From a virus (Duplodnaviria; Caudoviricetes), in IMG/VR virus record IMGVR_UViG_3300028792_000003, positions 1 through 64,000 of that record: a stretch of 64,000 nucleotides of DNA, one strand, 5' to 3'. Below the pieces are notes generated by a model, which saw nothing but the letters and a program-made list of their open reading frames with translations, was not told the DNA's origin and did no database searches. Both the position numbers and the translations under genes were made by a program. The stretch's first letter is position 1, and each line of letters opens with the position of its first letter. This document shows positions 18,896 through 56,486 of the stretch, piece after piece.

Positions 18896-19936
18896 TTAGC
18901 GAAGACGCACGGCAGAGTCCACTGCCCTACGGATCGCTTTACTAGAAGAGCCGCCCGGGTCATTGCTCAGGAGCGGGTTCCTGTCGTATCGAACAGCCCG
19001 GACCAGGAACTCCCGGCGCAGGTCCGTGCGGGGGTCGTACTCCTGGTACTGCTTGCCATGGTCCGACCGAAGACGGATGCCCTGTGCGTACAGTTCTGCC
19101 TTCCGGCCCGCTTTGTCGTTGTCGTAGAAGAGCACGATCTCCCCGACGCCGAGCCGTCGCAGCAGACGCACCTGGTTGGGCGTGATCGAAGACCCGTACT
19201 GGCCGAGTGCCGGGATTTCCGCCTGCCAGACCTTGGCGGTGTCGATGCTGCCTTCCACGATGCACACCATGTTGGAGTTGGACTGCTCGACCAGGTGTGC
19301 GCCGTGCATGTAGTCCTGCCGGTTGAACGGCGACTTCTTCTTCGACGGGTACTTGTAGCGCAGGTCAACGTCCGGGTCGAGGTAGCGCAGGATCACCCCG
19401 GCCAGACGGCCTTCCATGTCCCGGGCCGGGATCGTCGCCGCGTTGTTGATGATGTCGTAGCCCAACTCGAACTGCTGAACGGTGTCCTGCTTCAACCAGC
19501 GGTGGAACGAACAACCGACCTTGCCGGTGCAGCCCTGGGGAGGACGACGGTCCTGCGAGCACCTGCCCCAGTACGGCGTGGGGAATGCGTACCGCTGCAA
19601 CGACTCGTCATCTGCGAACGACGGCTGCTTCTTCGGACGGTTCAGTTCCCGGAGAGTTTCCTGCACGTGCTGCACGGTCCGCTTCAGGTCCGGTTCCATG
19701 GCCCGCACGTTCAGCACGCCGTACTGCTCGCCCAACTTGGCGATGCCACCGCCTTCGCCGCAGGAGAAGCACACCCACAGGCCGGTCTGCAAGTTGAACT
19801 GAAGCGTGTACTTGCTGGACCCGTGGAACTCGCACCGGACCATCACCTCCGAGCCGTTGACGTTGCCCACGTCGAGGTGTTGCTCTGCGAAGTCGCTGTA
19901 CTGGAACCCGGACAGTGCCGACTTGTCTGCCGACAT
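18896..19936 (-). CDS. DNA primase (zinc finger + TOPRIM)
   Basis: 'CEFH...CFSCGEGG' Zn finger; 'IVEGSID' and 'LFYDNDKAG' TOPRIM motifs. Confidence 0.9.
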   Translation of the reverse strand: MSADKSALSGFQYSDFAEQHLDVGNVNGSEVMVRCEFHGSSKYTLQFNLQTGLWVCFSCGEGGGIAKLGEQYGVLNVRAMEPDLKRTVQHVQETLRELNRPKKQPSFADDESLQRYAFPTPYWGRCSQDRRPPQGCTGKVGCSFHRWLKQDTVQQFELGYDIINNAATIPARDMEGRLAGVILRYLDPDVDLRYKYPSKKKSPFNRQDYMHGAHLVEQSNSNMVCIVEGSIDTAKVWQAEIPALGQYGSSITPNQVRLLRRLGVGEIVLFYDNDKAGRKAELYAQGIRLRSDHGKQYQEYDPRTDLRREFLVRAVRYDRNPLLSNDPGGSSSKAIRRAVDSAVRLR

Positions 19937-20361
19937 CAGGCAGCCATCCAGGTCTCGTTGCGGACGATGCGTCCGATAGTGCGGCGGTCAACGCCAAACT
20001 TCTGGCCGATCACACCTTGGGGCAAACCTTGCTCGTGATACATGCGACGAATCATGTGCACGTTGTCCCAGGCCAAGTGGGTGCGACCGTGTGACTCATA
20101 CCTGGCCTGACGACCTTTCCTATTGCGATCCGCATGGTTGTCCGCATGAGTACCGACAAACAGGTGTGACAGCCGGTAGCACGCAGGATTGTCGCAGTGG
20201 TGACAGATCAACATTCCGTCTGGGATGGGGCCAAATGCACTCTCCCACGTCACCCGGTGTATCAACGCGGTCTTGCCGTTGTGCCAGGTCTTTCCGTAGC
20301 CCTTGGATGACAGCCCATGCTTCCACCGCTTACACGGACCGATTGACTTAGTTGTCTTCAC
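19936..20361 (-). CDS. Free-standing HNH homing endonuclease with C-terminal HTH
   Basis: 'IHRVTW...ICHHCDNPAC...HLFVGTHADN'; GTG at 20361 with GGAGG SD inside the dnaB 3' end. Confidence 0.85.
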   Translation of the reverse strand: MKTTKSIGPCKRWKHGLSSKGYGKTWHNGKTALIHRVTWESAFGPIPDGMLICHHCDNPACYRLSHLFVGTHADNHADRNRKGRQARYESHGRTHLAWDNVHMIRRMYHEQGLPQGVIGQKFGVDRRTIGRIVRNETWMAA

Positions 20362-21622
20362 CAGAATCCTCCATTCGTGCTGCGTCACGGAGGTCCAACA
20401 TGGTCTGGTAGTCAACTTCACGGAGGATTCCCTTGTCAGGTTCGAAGTGGACATGCCAACGAAAACCGCCGGGACCGTTGCGGTTCTTTGCCATCTTCAT
20501 GGTCTGCGTCTTCGAGGACGTCTGCTTGATCGTGATGATCCCCGAGGCATCCTGACCGATGGCGTCGGACTGGCTGATGGTCTCCGGGCCACCGGGGTCT
20601 TTGCCACCCGATGCGTTCCGGTTCAACTGCGACGCTGCGACGATGGGCACCTGGTACTCGACAGCGAGGTTCAGCAGCCCGGACGAAAGCGCTGCCACGT
20701 CCTGCCATTCACCGCCCTTCTTGTCCATCAGGGTCAAGTAGTCGATGAACACGATGTCGGGCCGGTTCCGCTCGATCTGAGAGGCGACCGTCATCAGGCC
20801 AACGCGCCCCCGCGTCGTGTCGGACACGTGCAACTTGCCGTCGAGTTCCTTCTTCAACTGCCGGACGAACTTCTTGTAGCGAGTCAGGTCGAAGTCCCGG
20901 CCCTGCATCAGCGCGGTGGTGCTGAAGATCTCCTTGCCGATGGACGACGACAGGAACGCGTGGATACGCATGCCGACCTGGGCACGTGACTGTTCGAGGG
21001 CGTCGAACTGGACTGTGTAGCCGTTCAGAACAGCGGCAGTGGCCATCCGCTGCATCGTCCAGGACTTTCCTTCACCGAGACGCGCACCCACGATCCACAG
21101 GTCGCCGGGCTGCGGTCCACCGGTCTTGTCGTCAAGCGTTTCGAACCCGGTGGGGATGCCAGCACTGCCAGTACTAGCAACACGGTCCACTCGTCGTTCC
21201 ACGTCGGACACGATGTCGTCGTACATGCTGAAGATGTCGCCGTCGTTCATCGTGCCGAGCGAGGCGGCGATCTTCACCGCGCTGGACCCCATGGCCCGGA
21301 CAGCGGAGTCGATGTCACCCTTGGCGATCAGGTCGGTCCATTCGTTGATGCCGACCAGCATCTGTCTGCGGGCTGCTGCCTTGCGCACCTCGGTGGCGAA
21401 GTACTCGGTGTCGTTGACCGACTTGACCACGAACTTGGGGAACTCGGACTTGAATGCCGTCTTGCTGGGGGTCTTGCGATACCTGCCGTAGTAGCCTTCC
21501 AACCACTCCCACTCGTCGGGGTAGGCCCGGAACATTTCGTTCCCGATGTGGTTGGCCATGGCCAGATTGATGTCTCCTTCACGCAGGACGCTGCTGATCA
21601 GGAGTTGTTCGACGTTGGACAC
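20348..21622 (-). CDS. dnaB: DnaB-like replicative helicase
   Basis: Walker A 'GARLGEGKS'; 'VFIDYL', 'SQLNR', 'SDAIGQDA', 'KNRNG'; probable GTG start at 21622. Confidence 0.92.
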   Translation of the reverse strand: MSNVEQLLISSVLREGDINLAMANHIGNEMFRAYPDEWEWLEGYYGRYRKTPSKTAFKSEFPKFVVKSVNDTEYFATEVRKAAARRQMLVGINEWTDLIAKGDIDSAVRAMGSSAVKIAASLGTMNDGDIFSMYDDIVSDVERRVDRVASTGSAGIPTGFETLDDKTGGPQPGDLWIVGARLGEGKSWTMQRMATAAVLNGYTVQFDALEQSRAQVGMRIHAFLSSSIGKEIFSTTALMQGRDFDLTRYKKFVRQLKKELDGKLHVSDTTRGRVGLMTVASQIERNRPDIVFIDYLTLMDKKGGEWQDVAALSSGLLNLAVEYQVPIVAASQLNRNASGGKDPGGPETISQSDAIGQDASGIITIKQTSSKTQTMKMAKNRNGPGGFRWHVHFEPDKGILREVDYQTMLDLRDAARMEDSGEDN

Positions 21623-21759
21623 AGGTGTGCCTTCTTTCCACGCTTGATGTTCTTGGCCCATGTTGGAGCATTGCTTGCACTGCTACCCGAAAGACTGAAC
21701 CCGGCCCCGCTGCTCTCCTTCAGCAAGGCCGGGTTCTACGTCCAACGGGGAAACCGACA

Positions 21760-22356
21760 CTACCCCTGCGCCTTCTTCGCCGCCTTCTTCGCGGCACGGG
21801 TCGCGGCAGCCTTGGAGGCCGGGGTCGGCTCACGGAGCACCCAGGTCTGCTCGATGGTGTAGCCACGAGCCATCAGCCGGTGCACCAGCCCGGACATCAG
21901 CGCCGGGGCGTTGACCGGCTTGCCGTCCGTGGACTTGATCGTCTTGGCCACCTTGGCGGCGACCTCCGCACGGGACGAACCGCCTTCCAGCATCAGGTTG
22001 ACGATGGTTTCCGAGTTGGAGCCCTTCACGAAGCCGTGCTCGTTCATGTCCCGGGGCAGCGACCGGCCAGAGGTGCCCTTGGCGACCTTCTTGGTGGGGC
22101 GCTTCTTCGCGGTCGTGGTGCTGGCCTTCTTGACCGAGCGCTTCTTGGCCGGAGCCGTCTTGGCAGGAGCAGTCGTCTTGGCCGCAGCCTTCTTGACGGT
22201 GTGCTTCTTCTTCTTGGGGGTGACCACTGCCGGAGCACCAGCAGCGGTGTCGTCACCCTTGGCCGAGAACTCCACTGACGGGGCGATCTTCTTCTTCGCG
22301 GTCTTCTTCGCCGGGCGCTTCTTGGGAGCCGGTCCGACCTTCTTGGCAGGTGCCAT
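21760..22356 (-). CDS. Histone H1-like Lys/Ala-rich DNA-binding protein with a globular C-terminal domain
   Basis: PAKK/AKK repeats; ATG at 22356 with AGAGG SD and a promoter-like sequence upstream. Confidence 0.75.
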   Translation of the reverse strand: MAPAKKVGPAPKKRPAKKTAKKKIAPSVEFSAKGDDTAAGAPAVVTPKKKKHTVKKAAAKTTAPAKTAPAKKRSVKKASTTTAKKRPTKKVAKGTSGRSLPRDMNEHGFVKGSNSETIVNLMLEGGSSRAEVAAKVAKTIKSTDGKPVNAPALMSGLVHRLMARGYTIEQTWVLREPTPASKAAATRAAKKAAKKAQG

Positions 22357-22408
22357 GATGATGATCCTCTGGTTGTTGTTGTACGGGTGGATGTACTTGC
22401 AGAACCGG

Positions 22409-22458
22409 ACACTACAGGCAGACGCGATGACCGTGCAACATATCGCGCTGACCTGCGG
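22409..22458 (-). promoter_or_regulatory. Leftward sigma70-type promoter with upstream CCGCAGGTCAG motif
   Basis: Minus strand TTGCAC-N18-TAGTGT; CCGCAGGTCAG ends 9 nt upstream of the -35. Confidence 0.55.
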
Positions 22459-23059
22459 CTTTGCGCGTGTCGCGGCGTGGTTGACCCGGGCCATGGGCAC
22501 AGGTCCGGTGACCAGACGGCAGCGGGCCAGTGGCATAGGGCGCTCTACTAGAACAGTCCTGAACAGGAAGACAAGACAGGCATACCGAACAAGTAGCCGA
22601 AGGAGCCGGTAGAGAAAGAACCAGCAGAAACAGAAGCAGCCCCAGGTCACTCTGTCCTTGGAGCCGGGGAAGACTAGGAGCAGAGAACCTGGGGCTGCGA
22701 TTCCACCTGGACCCAAGCATTGCCCTGGACGACGCTGCACTCGGGTTGCAGCAGTGCGGGGCGAAGAGCACCAAGCGGGAAGAACTCTAGCCGAACCGGT
22801 CGCGGGCGGGTCAAGCCCCTCTGCACCGTTTGGACGTATGGCCCTGGTCACTGATCGACGGCACAGGCCGCTGGGCAGAATGGTCACCGGGCCGATGGCA
22901 CCGGGCGCTCTGGTATCTGTTTGCCGGTGAACAAGCGAACGATCCTTTCGGCAGCCTGGACTCTTCTGGTGATCCTGGTCGATGTAGCACTGGCCCTCTT
23001 CCTTCTGATCTGTCTGGTGGTGATCATCAAGATCATCTTCGGCTGACCCTCTGTCTGAA

Positions 23060-23230
23060 CAGTTGAGCAGTTGAGCAGTTTGAACTGAAGAAGAACAGAC
23101 CGAACATCTTCCAGAATCTTTTTTTCTCTTTCTCTGGTAGTTGTTCTTTCTGTTCTTCTTTTTTTTTCTTCTTCTCCGGTAGTTGTATCTCTTTCTTCTC
23201 TCTTGAACCTGTAGATGTATGTAGTAGTAA
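23060..23230. other. AT-rich polypyrimidine tract with short repeats (candidate replication origin)
   Basis: TCTT/TTTT-rich run; TTGAGCAG x2 and GGTAGTTGT x2; at the strand switch next to dnaB and primase. Confidence 0.4.
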
Positions 23231-23696
23231 GTACTCAAAGACGCGCGACGCGCAGGTGCCCACGCGTGGGAGCGCGCGAGGCAGGCCCTGCTGCAAGAGG
23301 GCCGCAAGAGGGACGCGGCTGAACCGAAAGCAGGTCGAGAGCATCCACGACCCGAGACCCGAGCACCAGGGAAACCGGCAGGGGTGACCCGATCCGGGAC
23401 CGGCCGGAGGAAGCCACAGAATCCGATCTGCGGGACTGGCACCCCGGTCCGGCTGTCCGGATGCCCCGGGGTGGGTTCTAGGCCGTTACAGGCGCTCTGA
23501 TGGCTTGCCATGACCGGCCCATGACCAGCCCGGACCGACCACCTGGCAGGCAGGACCAGGCTGGACCAGGGGTCGGAAGACGGCAGAATCCTCGCAGTTC
23601 TGGGTGGGTTCCCGGGGCAGGTACCCGGCAGGACCGAGTGCGACAGCGCCTACAAGTGTCCGTTTTGCCCCTTTTTCCGTAAAGTAAAGTACAAAA

Positions 23697-23752
23697 CCGC
23701 AGGTCAGACCGCGTGTCGGAATTGGATTCCACAGGGGGTGGTTTGGTACCCT
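23697..23752 (+). promoter_or_regulatory. Rightward promoter with upstream CCGCAGGTCAG motif
   Basis: TGGATT-N18-TACCCT with extended TG; same 11-mer as the leftward promoter. Confidence 0.45.
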
Positions 23753-23757
23753 TGCGG

Positions 23758-25100
23758 TCCGGGTTGATGTCTGCCCGGAAGCACCTCCGTAGAAGCCGAC
23801 TGGGTTCGGTGGACTTGCACGACAGTGCGGGGCGCGGGGGTGATCGCTCAGACATCGGGGTGTAGCCGACAGGCGGGATTGCCCCGGGACTCCGGTCCCA
23901 ACGACAACTCAACAGTGGGACGGTCTGCTGGACTTGCACGGTTCGCCGCGCAGGACTCGCAGGCTGAAGGGACAGGGTTAGGGATCGCCGGTTAGGGTGC
24001 CAAAACTCACGTCAACTCGTGAACCTGTTTCGTCCGGTCGGTGGATGTTGTGTCCACGGCTTACGCACACCTGGGCTTGATGCCCCATAGGTTGCAGCAA
24101 CGACTCATGGCCATGGACTTGGCCAGGACGATGAACCGGAAGCGCCGATCTCCACGCAAGTGGGGAAGGATGCGCAACAAGATCGGTCGCTGGTGACAGC
24201 GCGACAACCGATGTCTCTGTACTGACTTGCAGCCCCACGTGACTGCTGATCGAACCTGATCGGCCTCACCCCGGACTTGCTAGGACAGACCGCCGAACGT
24301 ACACAGCGTTTACTCCGCCGCCATGGTGCTGGGCAACTCCCTCGGGGGATTGCCGGACCAGCAGTGCCAGACGGAATCGCGCTTGACCGTACCGATGCCG
24401 CCGATCACTTGATCGGCCCAATGCACTCGGATCAAGGTGGGTACTAACTAGGTCGCGTTTCGGCCCTCGGGCACGCAGACAAGTACAGAAGACAACGACA
24501 GATCGATGAAAGGCATGACCCGCCGCTTAGACGGCTCCAGTCCCGATCTTCCGTGTAGCGATGGTGCCTCGTGTGGGCTACGTGCGGAAGTGAACGCGGT
24601 GTGGAATCCGCAACGATGGCAGCATGACTCGACGCCGGATACTGGCGAACACAGAGACATGGCTTGCACCACTTACAACTACGAACCTCGCCCCTGGGCC
24701 TGTTGGTAACAGGCAGTAGGGCGGGTCGCGTGCCGCTAGTTCGGCACAGGTGATCATCCTGCGGACCTCGGGGTCACGGGACTTGCGCGCTTCCGGGCGG
24801 GCAGGACTCTTAGCGGGCAGACGGATCACAGTGGATCATGCAAGCCGGGAAATCCCGATGGGGTCCAAACTCATCGGAAACCCGTTAGCGACCGCGATGA
24901 CAGAAGACGAAGCCCCGGAGTGTGACCGGGGCGGGTGAGCGGGATGGGTGGGAAGTTGAACTGTTCGCAGGGTGGAACCGGGGTCATGTAGAGATAACCA
25001 ATCTTGCACTAGACAGTGCGGGTGGACGATGGTGCTGGACTTGCCGTCGTCCTTCCCGGAACGCCTAGCGCGAACCTCAGCCTGTTCGACCGGCAGGCTG
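23758..25100 (+). ncRNA. Candidate large structured non-coding RNA (about 1.35 kb)
   Basis: No credible ORF; many hairpins including GCAA and GTGA tetraloops; long-range helices; six GACTTGC copies. Confidence 0.5.
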
Positions 25101-25126
25101 GCACAAGTACAACGAAAGGTCTGAAC

Positions 25127-27289
25127 ATGACGCTTGAAGAAAAGGCCGTCCGACTCATTCGCAAGTCGCTGAAGTACTACGGGGTCAGTGACGACCTGGG
25201 ACCGGCTGGCTCCCTGTCGGAGAACCTGGCCGCTGACCTGATCGAAGCGGGGTGGGTTCGCTGATGCTCACCGACACGCTGGGCTTGACCACGCCCTACA
25301 AGGTCACTGACGAACGAACCGGCCAGGCTCGACTTGTCTGGTCCTCGTCGCGGGGTCTGCGGCGACTGCTCCGGGCCAGGATCATCGGTACCAAGTCCGA
25401 CCACCACCTGGTGTCGGACACTCACATCCCGGCTACCACCGGGGTGCTGCGGGCCTACCACTACGACCGCAGCAGGCTGATCGGGACGTACCTCGTCACG
25501 AACACCACCTGGGGCGACTTCGCCACCTACGATGTTGAGAGGCCCAAGGACGACCCGTCCCTGGACCAGAAGATCAGCAACGCAGAGTGGGACCGCGATC
25601 ATGGCACTGGCGACTAACATTCGACTTCCGCTTGACGACCACGGCAACACGCCTCGTCAGCGCCGCAAGTTCGTCTGTAAGAAGCACCTCACGGCGTACT
25701 GCGCCAAGCGCAAGTGCGTCAAGCAGATCAACATCAAGAACAAGTAGGGGGTACTCGTCGTGGCAAGCAGGAAGCAGAAGCACGCGATGGTGATGGCCAA
25801 GCGGGAGTCGCGTCTGGCGGCGGAGCGCAGGGTCGGCCAGGAGGCGCTGGAGCGGGACCACGCGGAGCGGGCCAGGCAGGCTCGATTTGCGGAGGCAGAG
25901 AAGATGCGCCGCCGCAACAGCATCACCAGCAAGATGATCAACCTGATCGCCAAGTCGCTGGACGCCAACGAGGAGACCAAGTGACCCAGACCAGCCTTCC
26001 CAGCACTCGCCCGGTGATCATCGACCACACGGGCATGGTGGATCGCTTCATCAACAAGTCGGACTTCGCGGCCAGTTCGTCCGAACTCAGCGTCCGGGGT
26101 CATGCGTTCAGCGTCCGGTGGACGGCGATCCTGCTCTGGGTACTCGCTTTCATCCTGGGCACGGAAGGCGGCTGGATGGTGATGGTCTGTATGGGCCTCA
26201 CCGTGGCGGGTGTCGTCCTGTGGATGATCACCGGCCTGATGCTGGCCGACGACGCCAGCGAGTAGCAGCAGCAACAAGTACAACGGCCCGCCCCACTCAT
26301 CCCGGTGGGGCGGGTCTTGCACGTCCAACGACAACACAGCATGAGTGAAAGGGAACTATCAACATGGCCAAGTACAAGGGCACCGACTTCAAGGTCGGGC
26401 AGCGCGTTCTCGTGGACGGGGACGAGCCGGGCTACTGGGGCAAGGTGGTCCAGGTGAACCCGCGCACCGTCGAGGTGGAGTACGACGATGCGGACAGCAT
26501 CTTCCGGGTCTTCTTCAGCGACGTCGTGATGATCAAGCCGGAGGACGCGTCCGACCAGACGGCACCGGACGGCTACCAGGCGGACCCGGACAAGTTGAAC
26601 GACACGCTCAAGCCGAAGCACCCCACCGGGCCGCGCAAGTCCGGGGTGGCCGCGCTGGTCAACAAGGAGGGTCTGCTGGCGGTTCTGGGCACGGTTGTGC
26701 TGGCCCCGGACGGTGCGAACCAGACCTACTCGTTCCCCAACAACCGGCTCTGGGTGATCACGACTGACACCGGCACCGTCGTAGAGATCGCTCCGATCAA
26801 TGGCGACCCCGATGACGACTACCAGAAGGTTATCTGGACCTGCTACCGCAACGAACTCCGCACGGTGTCGGTGGCAACCACGATCCCGATGGAGTACCTG
26901 CCGTGACCAGCCAGAAGTCCTACACGTTCAACGACGTGCTGCTGAACGTGCAGATCGACCCGACTCGTGACGAGTACCCCACTTGGGAGCCGCGTCCGAA
27001 CACCCGGGTATACCTGACTGGCCCGACTCGTGCGTCGGTCTTCGTCTACGGCAGCAGGATTGCAACCCTGTTCGCTGACGGTAACGTGAAGTTGCTCGTG
27101 TCGCAGGACATGTCCAACACCGTGCGCAACAGGCTGAACGACGTGCTCGAACCGTTGGGATGGCGACTGCACCAGTGGTCGCATCGTTGGTACTTGCTGG
27201 CGTTGCAGCCGAACGAACCGGTTCGCATCGAGTACATCACCGGGATGATCATCCACCCGGCACCCATCACCAACAACAGCAACCGCTGA
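25127..27289 (+). other. Cluster of small early hypothetical genes (25127-25264, 25264-25617, ~25601-25747, 25760-25984, 25981-26265, 26364-26906, 26903-27289)
   Basis: Tightly coupled ORFs with SD sites and phage codon usage; 26364 starts with an SH3/KOW-like 'FKVGQRVLV'. Confidence 0.6.
26286..26315 (+). terminator. Intrinsic terminator-like hairpin
   Basis: GCCCGCCCCAC...GTGGGGCGGGT followed by CTT. Confidence 0.55.
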
Positions 27290-56404: not shown

Positions 56405-56486
56405 GCGGGCATGGCGGAACAGGCATACGCACCGTCCTCAAAAGACGGCACCGCAAGGTATACGGGTTCGACTCCCGTTGCCCGCA
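56405..56486 (+). tRNA. tRNA-Leu(CAA)
   Basis: Acceptor GCGGGCA/TGCCCGC; anticodon arm CCGTC-CTCAAAA-GACGG; long variable arm; T-loop TTCGACT; discriminator A; CCA not encoded. Confidence 0.93.

Follow-up and report, generated by a model that had tools for sequence, protein, structure and literature searches.

A predicted modular untranslated leader RNA ahead of the rightward early genes in an uncultured actinobacterial phage

A gene-free gap between replication and early genes

Phage record IMGVR_UViG_3300028792_000003 spans 91.8 kb at 62% GC, and the window analyzed here is its first 64 kb (64,000 nucleotides). Judged by DnaB identity, the nearest cultured relative of this uncultured actinobacterial phage is Brevibacterium phage Cantare (51%), followed at 42-45% by Gordonia phages of the Chidiebere and GMA6 type. 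Within the window, a gap free of genes lies between minus strand genes on the left (primase, DnaB helicase and a further ORF) and plus strand genes on the right.

18896-19936, minus strand: primase, left of the gap
20348-21661, minus strand: DnaB helicase, left of the gap
21760-22356, minus strand: gene for a Lys-rich protein of 198 aa, corresponding to the last 198 codons of a spurious 583-aa ORF and kept in relatives
22357-25126, no strand assigned: the whole gene-free gap (2.77 kb) between the minus strand replication genes and the plus strand early genes, with an equivalent syntenic gap in relatives
25114-25129, plus strand: ribosome binding site GAAAGG, then the ATG that opens the first early gene (25127-25264; 45 aa)
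from 25127, plus strand: small early genes, right of the gap
27160, plus strand: AAA_5 ATPase, right of the gap
28485, plus strand: VWA protein, right of the gap

Through DnaB and the AAA ATPase we reached metagenomic relatives and contigs (designated L with a number), all of which share the same gene arrangement with a gene-free gap. The gap measures 2.1 kb in L013, the closest of the relatives that cover the full region (DnaB 61% identical to that of this phage); L097 has 2.3 kb, L133 and L135 have about 1.3 kb each and L014-16 have 1.4-1.6 kb. In the cultured relatives it is 1.16 kb (Gordonia phage ChisanaKitsune) and 0.7 kb (Cantare). Most of the gap cannot be aligned between this phage and L013, but about 10 short collinear islands remain. 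Strain-level variants of L097 (99.3-99.8% identical) were too similar to inform the comparison. Used alone as an IMG/VR query DnaB returned no match, the AAA ATPase query returned distant loci only in one search, and a blastn search of the region against 50,697 phage records, a collection presumed to include L5 and D29, gave zero matches. The sequencing runs listed as containing the stretch comprise one DNA run, which is probably the source, and no RNA run.

A first-pass annotation of the DNA had marked 23758-25100 as an ORF-free stretch of about 1.35 kb. Codon log-odds, GC3 and stop distribution bear out that no credible gene lies there; the extent was set too short, as the true gap reaches from 22357 to 25126. 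GC3 periodicity is lost from about 22450 to about 25100. We rejected a 583-aa ORF (21760-23511, minus strand) as an artefact composed of low-complexity translation upstream of an internal ATG, with GC3 periodicity ending near 22400. Because this ORF is an artefact and the real gene ends at 22356, the left boundary of the gap falls at 22357, and for the same reason the 583-aa ORF used as a query matched no relatives. The real gene, which lies upstream of DnaB, encodes a Lys/Ala/Pro-rich protein with a conserved C-terminal domain, for which searches gave neither a Pfam match above the cut-off nor a PDB match, and nothing convincing in PHROG; the protein may assist the helicase by binding the origin or coating DNA.

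Unannotated small genes, or the remains of a decayed gene, are a very improbable account of the stretch. ORFs of 41-67 aa exist, GC3 periodicity is weakly visible at 23950-24450, and the early genes beside the gap are themselves poorly conserved between relatives. Yet every ORF of at least 40 aa within 23758-25100 has a codon log-odds of at most 0.09, against 0.13-0.56 for neighboring real small genes, and stop codons are spread evenly across the three frames (13-15 per 456 codons in each). No ORF is conserved at the protein level beyond the DNA islands, which score alike on both strands, and the substitutions within the islands track pairing rather than codon position. The only gene-like codon score in the gap (0.305) belongs to a 41-aa ORF in its left half (22921-23046, plus strand), which encodes the strongly hydrophobic peptide AAWTLLVILVDVALALFLLICLVVIIKIIFG and may specify a small membrane protein inside the non-coding region.

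The contigs of many relatives (L012, L017, L051, L054, L009 and others) stop in or beside the gap, and relative contigs of 38.9, 60 and 72 kb begin at most 2 kb from DnaB. We considered whether the gap marks a physical genome end and rejected this for the present phage; the cultured relatives have the junction in mid-genome, and a 57-kb Logan contig from the source run spans the region with no break or variant. The contig ends suggest hypervariability of the region within populations, enough to interrupt assemblies, with microdiversity the likelier cause. Both ends of the phage record itself fall inside the structural gene block, and its AAA ATPase is also listed on a 92,794-nt contig, 1,001 nt beyond the 91,793-nt record; the record is probably a permuted or slightly incomplete linearization.

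Predicted divergent promoters and a candidate replication origin

Two divergent promoter-like sites and a repeat-bearing AT-rich tract were identified in the gap.

22409-22460, minus strand: leftward promoter P_L of the Lys-rich/DnaB operon, TTGCAC-N18-TAGTGT (22438-22409), with a copy of the CCGCAGGTCAG motif (22448-22460) upstream of the −35
23088-23218, no strand assigned: AT-rich tract (35% GC) of strongly strand-skewed pyrimidines, containing a 26-nt direct repeat in three copies (TTTTTTTCTCTTTCTCTGGTAGTTGT) and an inverted repeat of 28 nt
23655-23707, plus strand: conserved upstream element ending in the 13-mer AACCGCAGGTCAG (23695-23707), about 15 nt upstream of the P_R −35
23722-23752, plus strand: rightward early promoter P_R, with −35 TTGGAT (23722-27), spacer palindrome CCACAGGGGGTGG (23729-41) and extended −10 TGGTACCCT (23744-52)

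The layout of P_R, TTGGAT-N19-TACCCT with a TG extension, is of the sigma-A-type extended −10 kind. Across four to five lineages with a DnaB 59-83% identical to that of this phage, a P_R-like site (TTGNNN-N17-19-TANNNT with TG extension and palindrome) is present at the homologous position, with counterparts in L013, L097, L009 and L133. On the plus strand of the whole gap TGNTANNNT occurs once in each of this phage, L013, L097 and L009, always at the homologous place, and TANNNT is rare genome-wide (0.9 per kb). The spacer palindrome is CCAC-N5-GTGG in this phage and ATACCC...GGGTAT in L097, L133 and L017. The first-pass annotation had seen a plausible promoter upstream of its stretch. P_R lies directly before the stretch and is conserved in relatives, and the position at which the stretch had been started, 23758, coincides with the transcription start predicted for P_R near 23757. 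A search for a second promoter-like site between P_R and the first gene found none in this phage or in L013. A SigR/SigH-type promoter (GGAAT-N18-GTT at 23718) was rejected as not conserved.

P_L is positioned about 80 nt before the Lys-rich gene, and the same promoter is found in L097, L133 and L017. Each of the two divergent promoters has the 13-mer motif shortly before its −35 (23695-23707 and 22448-22460); at P_R the 13-mer AACCGCAGGTCAG is identical in this phage, L013, L009, L097 and L133, and it is inverted in L135. A metagenome scan for the 13-mer plus palindrome returned 25 loci, mostly a conserved actinobacterial intergenic element (L106 and similar), together with two tRNAs and singletons, and none showed further similarity to the phage gap or a match in Rfam. 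Two copies of the 13-mer motif, alongside CCAC-N5-GTGG and GTGGACA-type boxes that resemble DnaA boxes, occur at L106:590-641 and at about 14 further metagenome loci. The gene beside this intergenic element of high-GC bacteria is presumably crgA-like, as judged by eye. The likeness between the phage 13-mer and the bacterial element could reflect a shared host-factor site or chance.

The pyrimidine tract is placed between P_L and P_R, and at the corresponding position L097 carries CCTATGGG repeats within an AT-rich tract. An AT-rich tract with direct repeats, adjoining replication genes, is found to the left of the stretch first singled out; its anatomy and neighboring genes suggest that 23088-23218 is probably the replication origin, and that the left half of the gap (22357-23650) is probably an origin feature separate from the RNA leader predicted below.

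Covarying hairpins on the plus strand

From P_R to the first early gene the plus strand is predicted to form an untranslated leader or non-coding RNA with the following structural domains.

23757-25126, plus strand: predicted untranslated leader or non-coding RNA (1.37 kb), from P_R to the first early gene
23762-23856, plus strand: 5'-proximal long hairpin domain, which includes the helix 23766-73/23849-56
23905-23978, plus strand: B-H1-B2, a single-stranded box CAACTCAACAGTGG, followed by an 8-bp helix (23921-28/23959-66) that encloses a variable hairpin, then GGCTGAAGGGACAGGGT
24298-24397, plus strand: D3, UACACA-stem...stem-UUGA, with a base helix (24302-09/24379-85) and two inner helices
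24533-24626, plus strand: Island C, a 12-bp stem (24548-59/24577-90) with outer helices (24536-45/24595-605) and a conserved 17-nt loop
25077-25101, plus strand: hairpin H3, 26 nt upstream of the first early ATG

The distance between the P_R counterpart and the first gene is about 1.3 kb in L013 and L097, with shorter distances of about 1.0 kb (L133) and about 0.73 kb (L016). Left of P_R the gap takes up 0.2 to 1.3 kb, depending on the lineage, compared with 1.0-1.4 kb from P_R to the first gene in this phage, L013, L097 and L133.

We find that four local structures predicted on the plus strand (23921-66, 24302-85, 24536-605 and 25077-101) keep their pairing through compensatory changes in separate helices or domains, each compared over 2-5 lineages, with the structures derived from the same alignments as the covariation counts, so that the counts lean towards the structures. 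In the H1 helix, 24 of 24 cells across three lineages are paired, with covariation at two pairs and an invariant G-U at two; the hairpin is missing from L014-16 and L133, where the two boxes stand side by side. A covariance model of B-H1-B2 gave weak matches only (E of about 1 or higher). In H3, three lineages show three double-sided pair changes, and the loop-closing U-G pair is conserved. Read on the opposite strand, the invariant G-U pairs would become A-C mismatches, which favors an RNA over a site in duplex DNA.

D3 was compared in five lineages, in which 98.8% of cells are paired and eight pairs are changed on both sides, one of them represented by four pair types (GC, CG, UA and UG). 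None of 500 shuffles reached the observed values, and slid controls paired at 25-50%. A covariance model built from four of the lineages found the fifth, L017, at an E of about 1e-7, in the syntenic place and in the right orientation. Island C is 81% identical between this phage and L013 over 95 nt, with an invariant 17-nt loop, six pairs changed on both sides and none broken; its covariance model found no member beyond these two phages.

Covariation among homologues is present in the four local helices or domains; between this phage and L013, the greater part of the leader lacks conserved structure. The helices that had drawn attention to the stretch can be found in the sequence, namely GATGTCTG 23766-73/CAGACATC 23849-56 and CCGATC 24145-50/GATCGG 24181-86, as can the hairpins at 24150-65 and 24188-201 and the complementary segments ATGTCTCTGT 24211-20/ACAGAGACAT 24651-60. 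Several structures of the first-pass annotation do not recur in L013: the two GNRA hairpins are deleted or altered, the stems at 24698-714 and 24912-32 are not kept, and the long-range 10-bp pair is absent and is lineage-specific. We estimate that chance alone would yield about two perfect complementary pairs of 10 bp within 1.3 kb. The sequence of the 5' long hairpin is likewise not conserved, with relatives folding a non-homologous long hairpin at the same position.

Folding of the leader as a whole

Folding of five 300-nt windows against dinucleotide shuffles gave z-scores of −1.68, −1.26, −0.14, −2.39 and −1.66 (mean −1.43), and 24 coding control windows from the same genome gave a mean of −0.63 (sd 0.78). 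The earlier description of the region as densely base-paired is on this measure marginal (z of −0.1 to −2.4 against −0.6 for the coding controls). A genome-wide regression of folding energy on GC shows an excess of half a standard deviation in the region, on the plus strand only. Sliding RNAalifold over the alignment of this phage with L013 gave an SCI of 0.1-0.4 in most 160-column windows, with z near 0 and no excess over column shuffles; two of 14 windows rose above the column shuffles (z near −2.6).

These values bear on the proposal, raised in the first-pass annotation, of a single giant, globally folded RNA of the GOLLD or ROOL sort. The report that the stretch matches no known class holds, since no Rfam 15 family matched the region in a covariance-model scan, where hits at E up to 10 were noise below gathering scores; so does that of no group I or II intron hallmarks, with the intron covariance models unmatched. 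A discrete giant ncRNA gene with a function of its own, to which the downstream operon is incidental, would account for the size, the missing genes and Rfam match, the several covarying conserved domains across 1.2 kb and the negative sign of all five folding z-scores. Such a gene is nevertheless distinctly unlikely, and its globally folded form is not supported: the one long-range pairing put forward, 24211-20/24651-60, is missing in L013, the SCI is low in most windows, and whole domains (Island C, the H1 hairpin) come and go between lineages. The unit is closed by no terminator and has no tRNA neighborhood, as the sole tRNA of the 64-kb window in the Rfam covariance-model scan lies at 56405. 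A long modular 5' leader fits better than a separate RNA gene because no terminator precedes the first gene; our search of 23300-25400 found no terminator-like site on the plus strand, although actinobacterial terminators without a U-tract would escape it.

A recurring UACACA-stem-UUGA module

At the base of D3, CA(C)A and the next 4 nt pair with 4 nt followed by UUG. This base defines a module that recurs in two to five copies per leader on the plus strand and essentially never on the minus strand; as UACACA-stem-UUGA it has one to three copies per leader. Shuffles predict 0.04-0.27 such modules per leader. The copies comprise at least nine different stem sequences and are sometimes nested. 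Pattern scans of IMG/VR for the module recovered L017 and one unrelated contig, L143 (IMGVR_UViG_3300032144_000031, 53% GC), which over 13.6 kb has no genes in common with this phage. Several nested UACACA-stem-UUGA modules lie at L143:10269-10830, in a non-coding region of about 550 nt. That region follows a collagen-like gene and a gene resembling a holin gene.

The UACACA-stem-UUGA module may be a wider phage RNA motif. The leader could represent a new family of modular phage early RNAs in which repeated hairpins of this kind and further conserved boxes recruit a protein, with a module that would be mobile between unrelated phages given its occurrence in L143, a proposal we put forward tentatively and hold to be rather doubtful. 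The protein recruited by such a family would be an antiterminator or a sequestered host RNA-binding factor.

GGACTTG repeats and a role for the region as DNA

Six copies of a short repeat were also found along the leader, at 29 times the genome density.

23811, 23930, 24115, 24273, 24779 and 25037 (starts; span 23811-25044), plus strand: six copies of GGACTTG(C/G), all on one strand

GGACTTG is repeated in L097 as well. We tried the repeats as the −35 boxes of tandem promoters and rejected this, as there is no −10 box 16-19 nt downstream; they were also rejected as the start of uniform hairpin modules, as contexts vary between copies. A search for a phage sigma-70 region 2 found none, and a search for a T7-type RNA polymerase was uninformative, its control giving no match anywhere.

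The strand specificity of the repeats is one point in favor of a reading in which the region acts mainly as DNA, as an extended replication or regulation region with protein-binding sites (GGACTTG, the palindromes, the 13-mer), and possibly as an origin primed by an R-loop from a G-rich transcript, as for ColE1 RNA II or T4 origins. The region adjoins the primase, the helicase and the conserved Lys-rich protein, it includes the AT-rich repeat tract, palindromes and the invariant 13-mer lie upstream of both divergent promoters, and G exceeds C on the plus strand, giving a positive skew. We consider this reading unlikely for the stretch from P_R to the first gene. The origin-like features lie left of the promoter and outside the stretch first annotated, the double-sided pair changes and invariant G-U pairs fit RNA rather than duplex binding sites, and GGACTTG is missing in L013 though the length of the region is kept.

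A modular leader of the rightward early operon

As a non-coding feature the stretch at 23758-25100 stands. Taken together, the conserved promoter, the absence of genes, the excess of G over C on the plus strand and the covarying plus strand hairpins make it reasonably probable that the right part of the gap is a modular, partly structured untranslated 5' leader RNA of the rightward early operon in a phage of about 92 kb, a reading drawn from sequence comparison. Against an untranslated leader we count the marginal folding energy, the lack of conserved structure over most of its length between this phage and L013, covariation drawn from 2-5 lineages, the restriction of Island C to two lineages, the weak −35 and 19-nt spacer of P_R in this phage, the final G in place of T in the TGGTACCC box of L017, and the GGACTTG repeats, which such a leader leaves unexplained and which L013 lacks.

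Under the leader reading, host RNA polymerase would start at P_R (23722-23752), with its palindromic operator in the spacer and its invariant upstream element, and would cross about 1.37 kb of gene-free DNA ahead of the first early gene (25127). The predicted RNA is modular, with fast-evolving spacers (lineage-specific hairpins, GGACUUG repeats) between conserved hairpin domains. We infer that the conserved domains B-H1-B2, D3, Island C and the hairpin before the ribosome binding site would act in cis on early expression. The modules may keep polymerase elongating over more than 1 kb of untranslated RNA, in the manner of nut or put sites; they may set RNA stability and the translation of the first gene, and they may bind a phage or host protein. 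The leader may also be processed into a stable non-coding RNA.

Relatives retain the length of the leader (0.7-1.4 kb) but not its sequence, and the leader offers four separable hairpin domains, each of which can be tested singly. One of its elements is a compact hairpin module, strand-specific and showing good covariation, that is in no RNA catalogue. Should the modules turn out to bind proteins or to signal antitermination, they would open a way into the control of early genes for a large and mostly uncultured group of phages related to Brevibacterium phage Cantare and Gordonia phage GMA6, and would add a new RNA motif to the catalogues.

Comparison with known systems

GOLLD and ROOL are large ornate RNAs, often phage-borne, that form Rfam families. 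The leader resembles them as a large non-coding phage stretch with several conserved stem-loops, and differs in matching no covariance model up to an E of 10, in not lying beside tRNAs, and in having no conserved global architecture, with domains gained and lost between close relatives.

The nut sites of lambda and the put RNAs of HK022 are processive antitermination signals located just downstream of early promoters. Similarly, the leader presents single-stranded boxes and a hairpin (B-H1-B2, D3) shortly after an early promoter and before a long transcription unit, in more than one copy per phage, with the function inferred purely from position. We identified no N-like or Q-like protein in this phage. 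The R-loop origins of ColE1 RNA II and T4 are comparable in having a G-rich untranslated transcript beside replication genes and an origin-like tract, whereas transcription of the leader runs away from the AT-rich tract, and neither an RNase H site nor a primer 3' end can be named in it.

Long untranslated early leaders are experimentally known in few actinobacterial phages. In cluster A mycobacteriophages (L5, D29, StarStuff), an abundant stable ncRNA is produced from an ORF-free 500 bp after the early promoter Pleft, as determined by RNA-seq and Northern blot, and is toxic to the host (PMC5712189). The leader described here is longer (1.37 kb compared with about 500 bp), showed no blastn similarity to that RNA and is predicted from sequence. 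Both are ORF-free stretches directly after an early lytic promoter and before the first early gene of an actinobacterial phage, both have a promoter that overlaps a repressor-type site, and both evolve fast in sequence with many indels. By this analogy of position, the Pleft ncRNA of L5 and D29 is the nearest known counterpart of the predicted leader.
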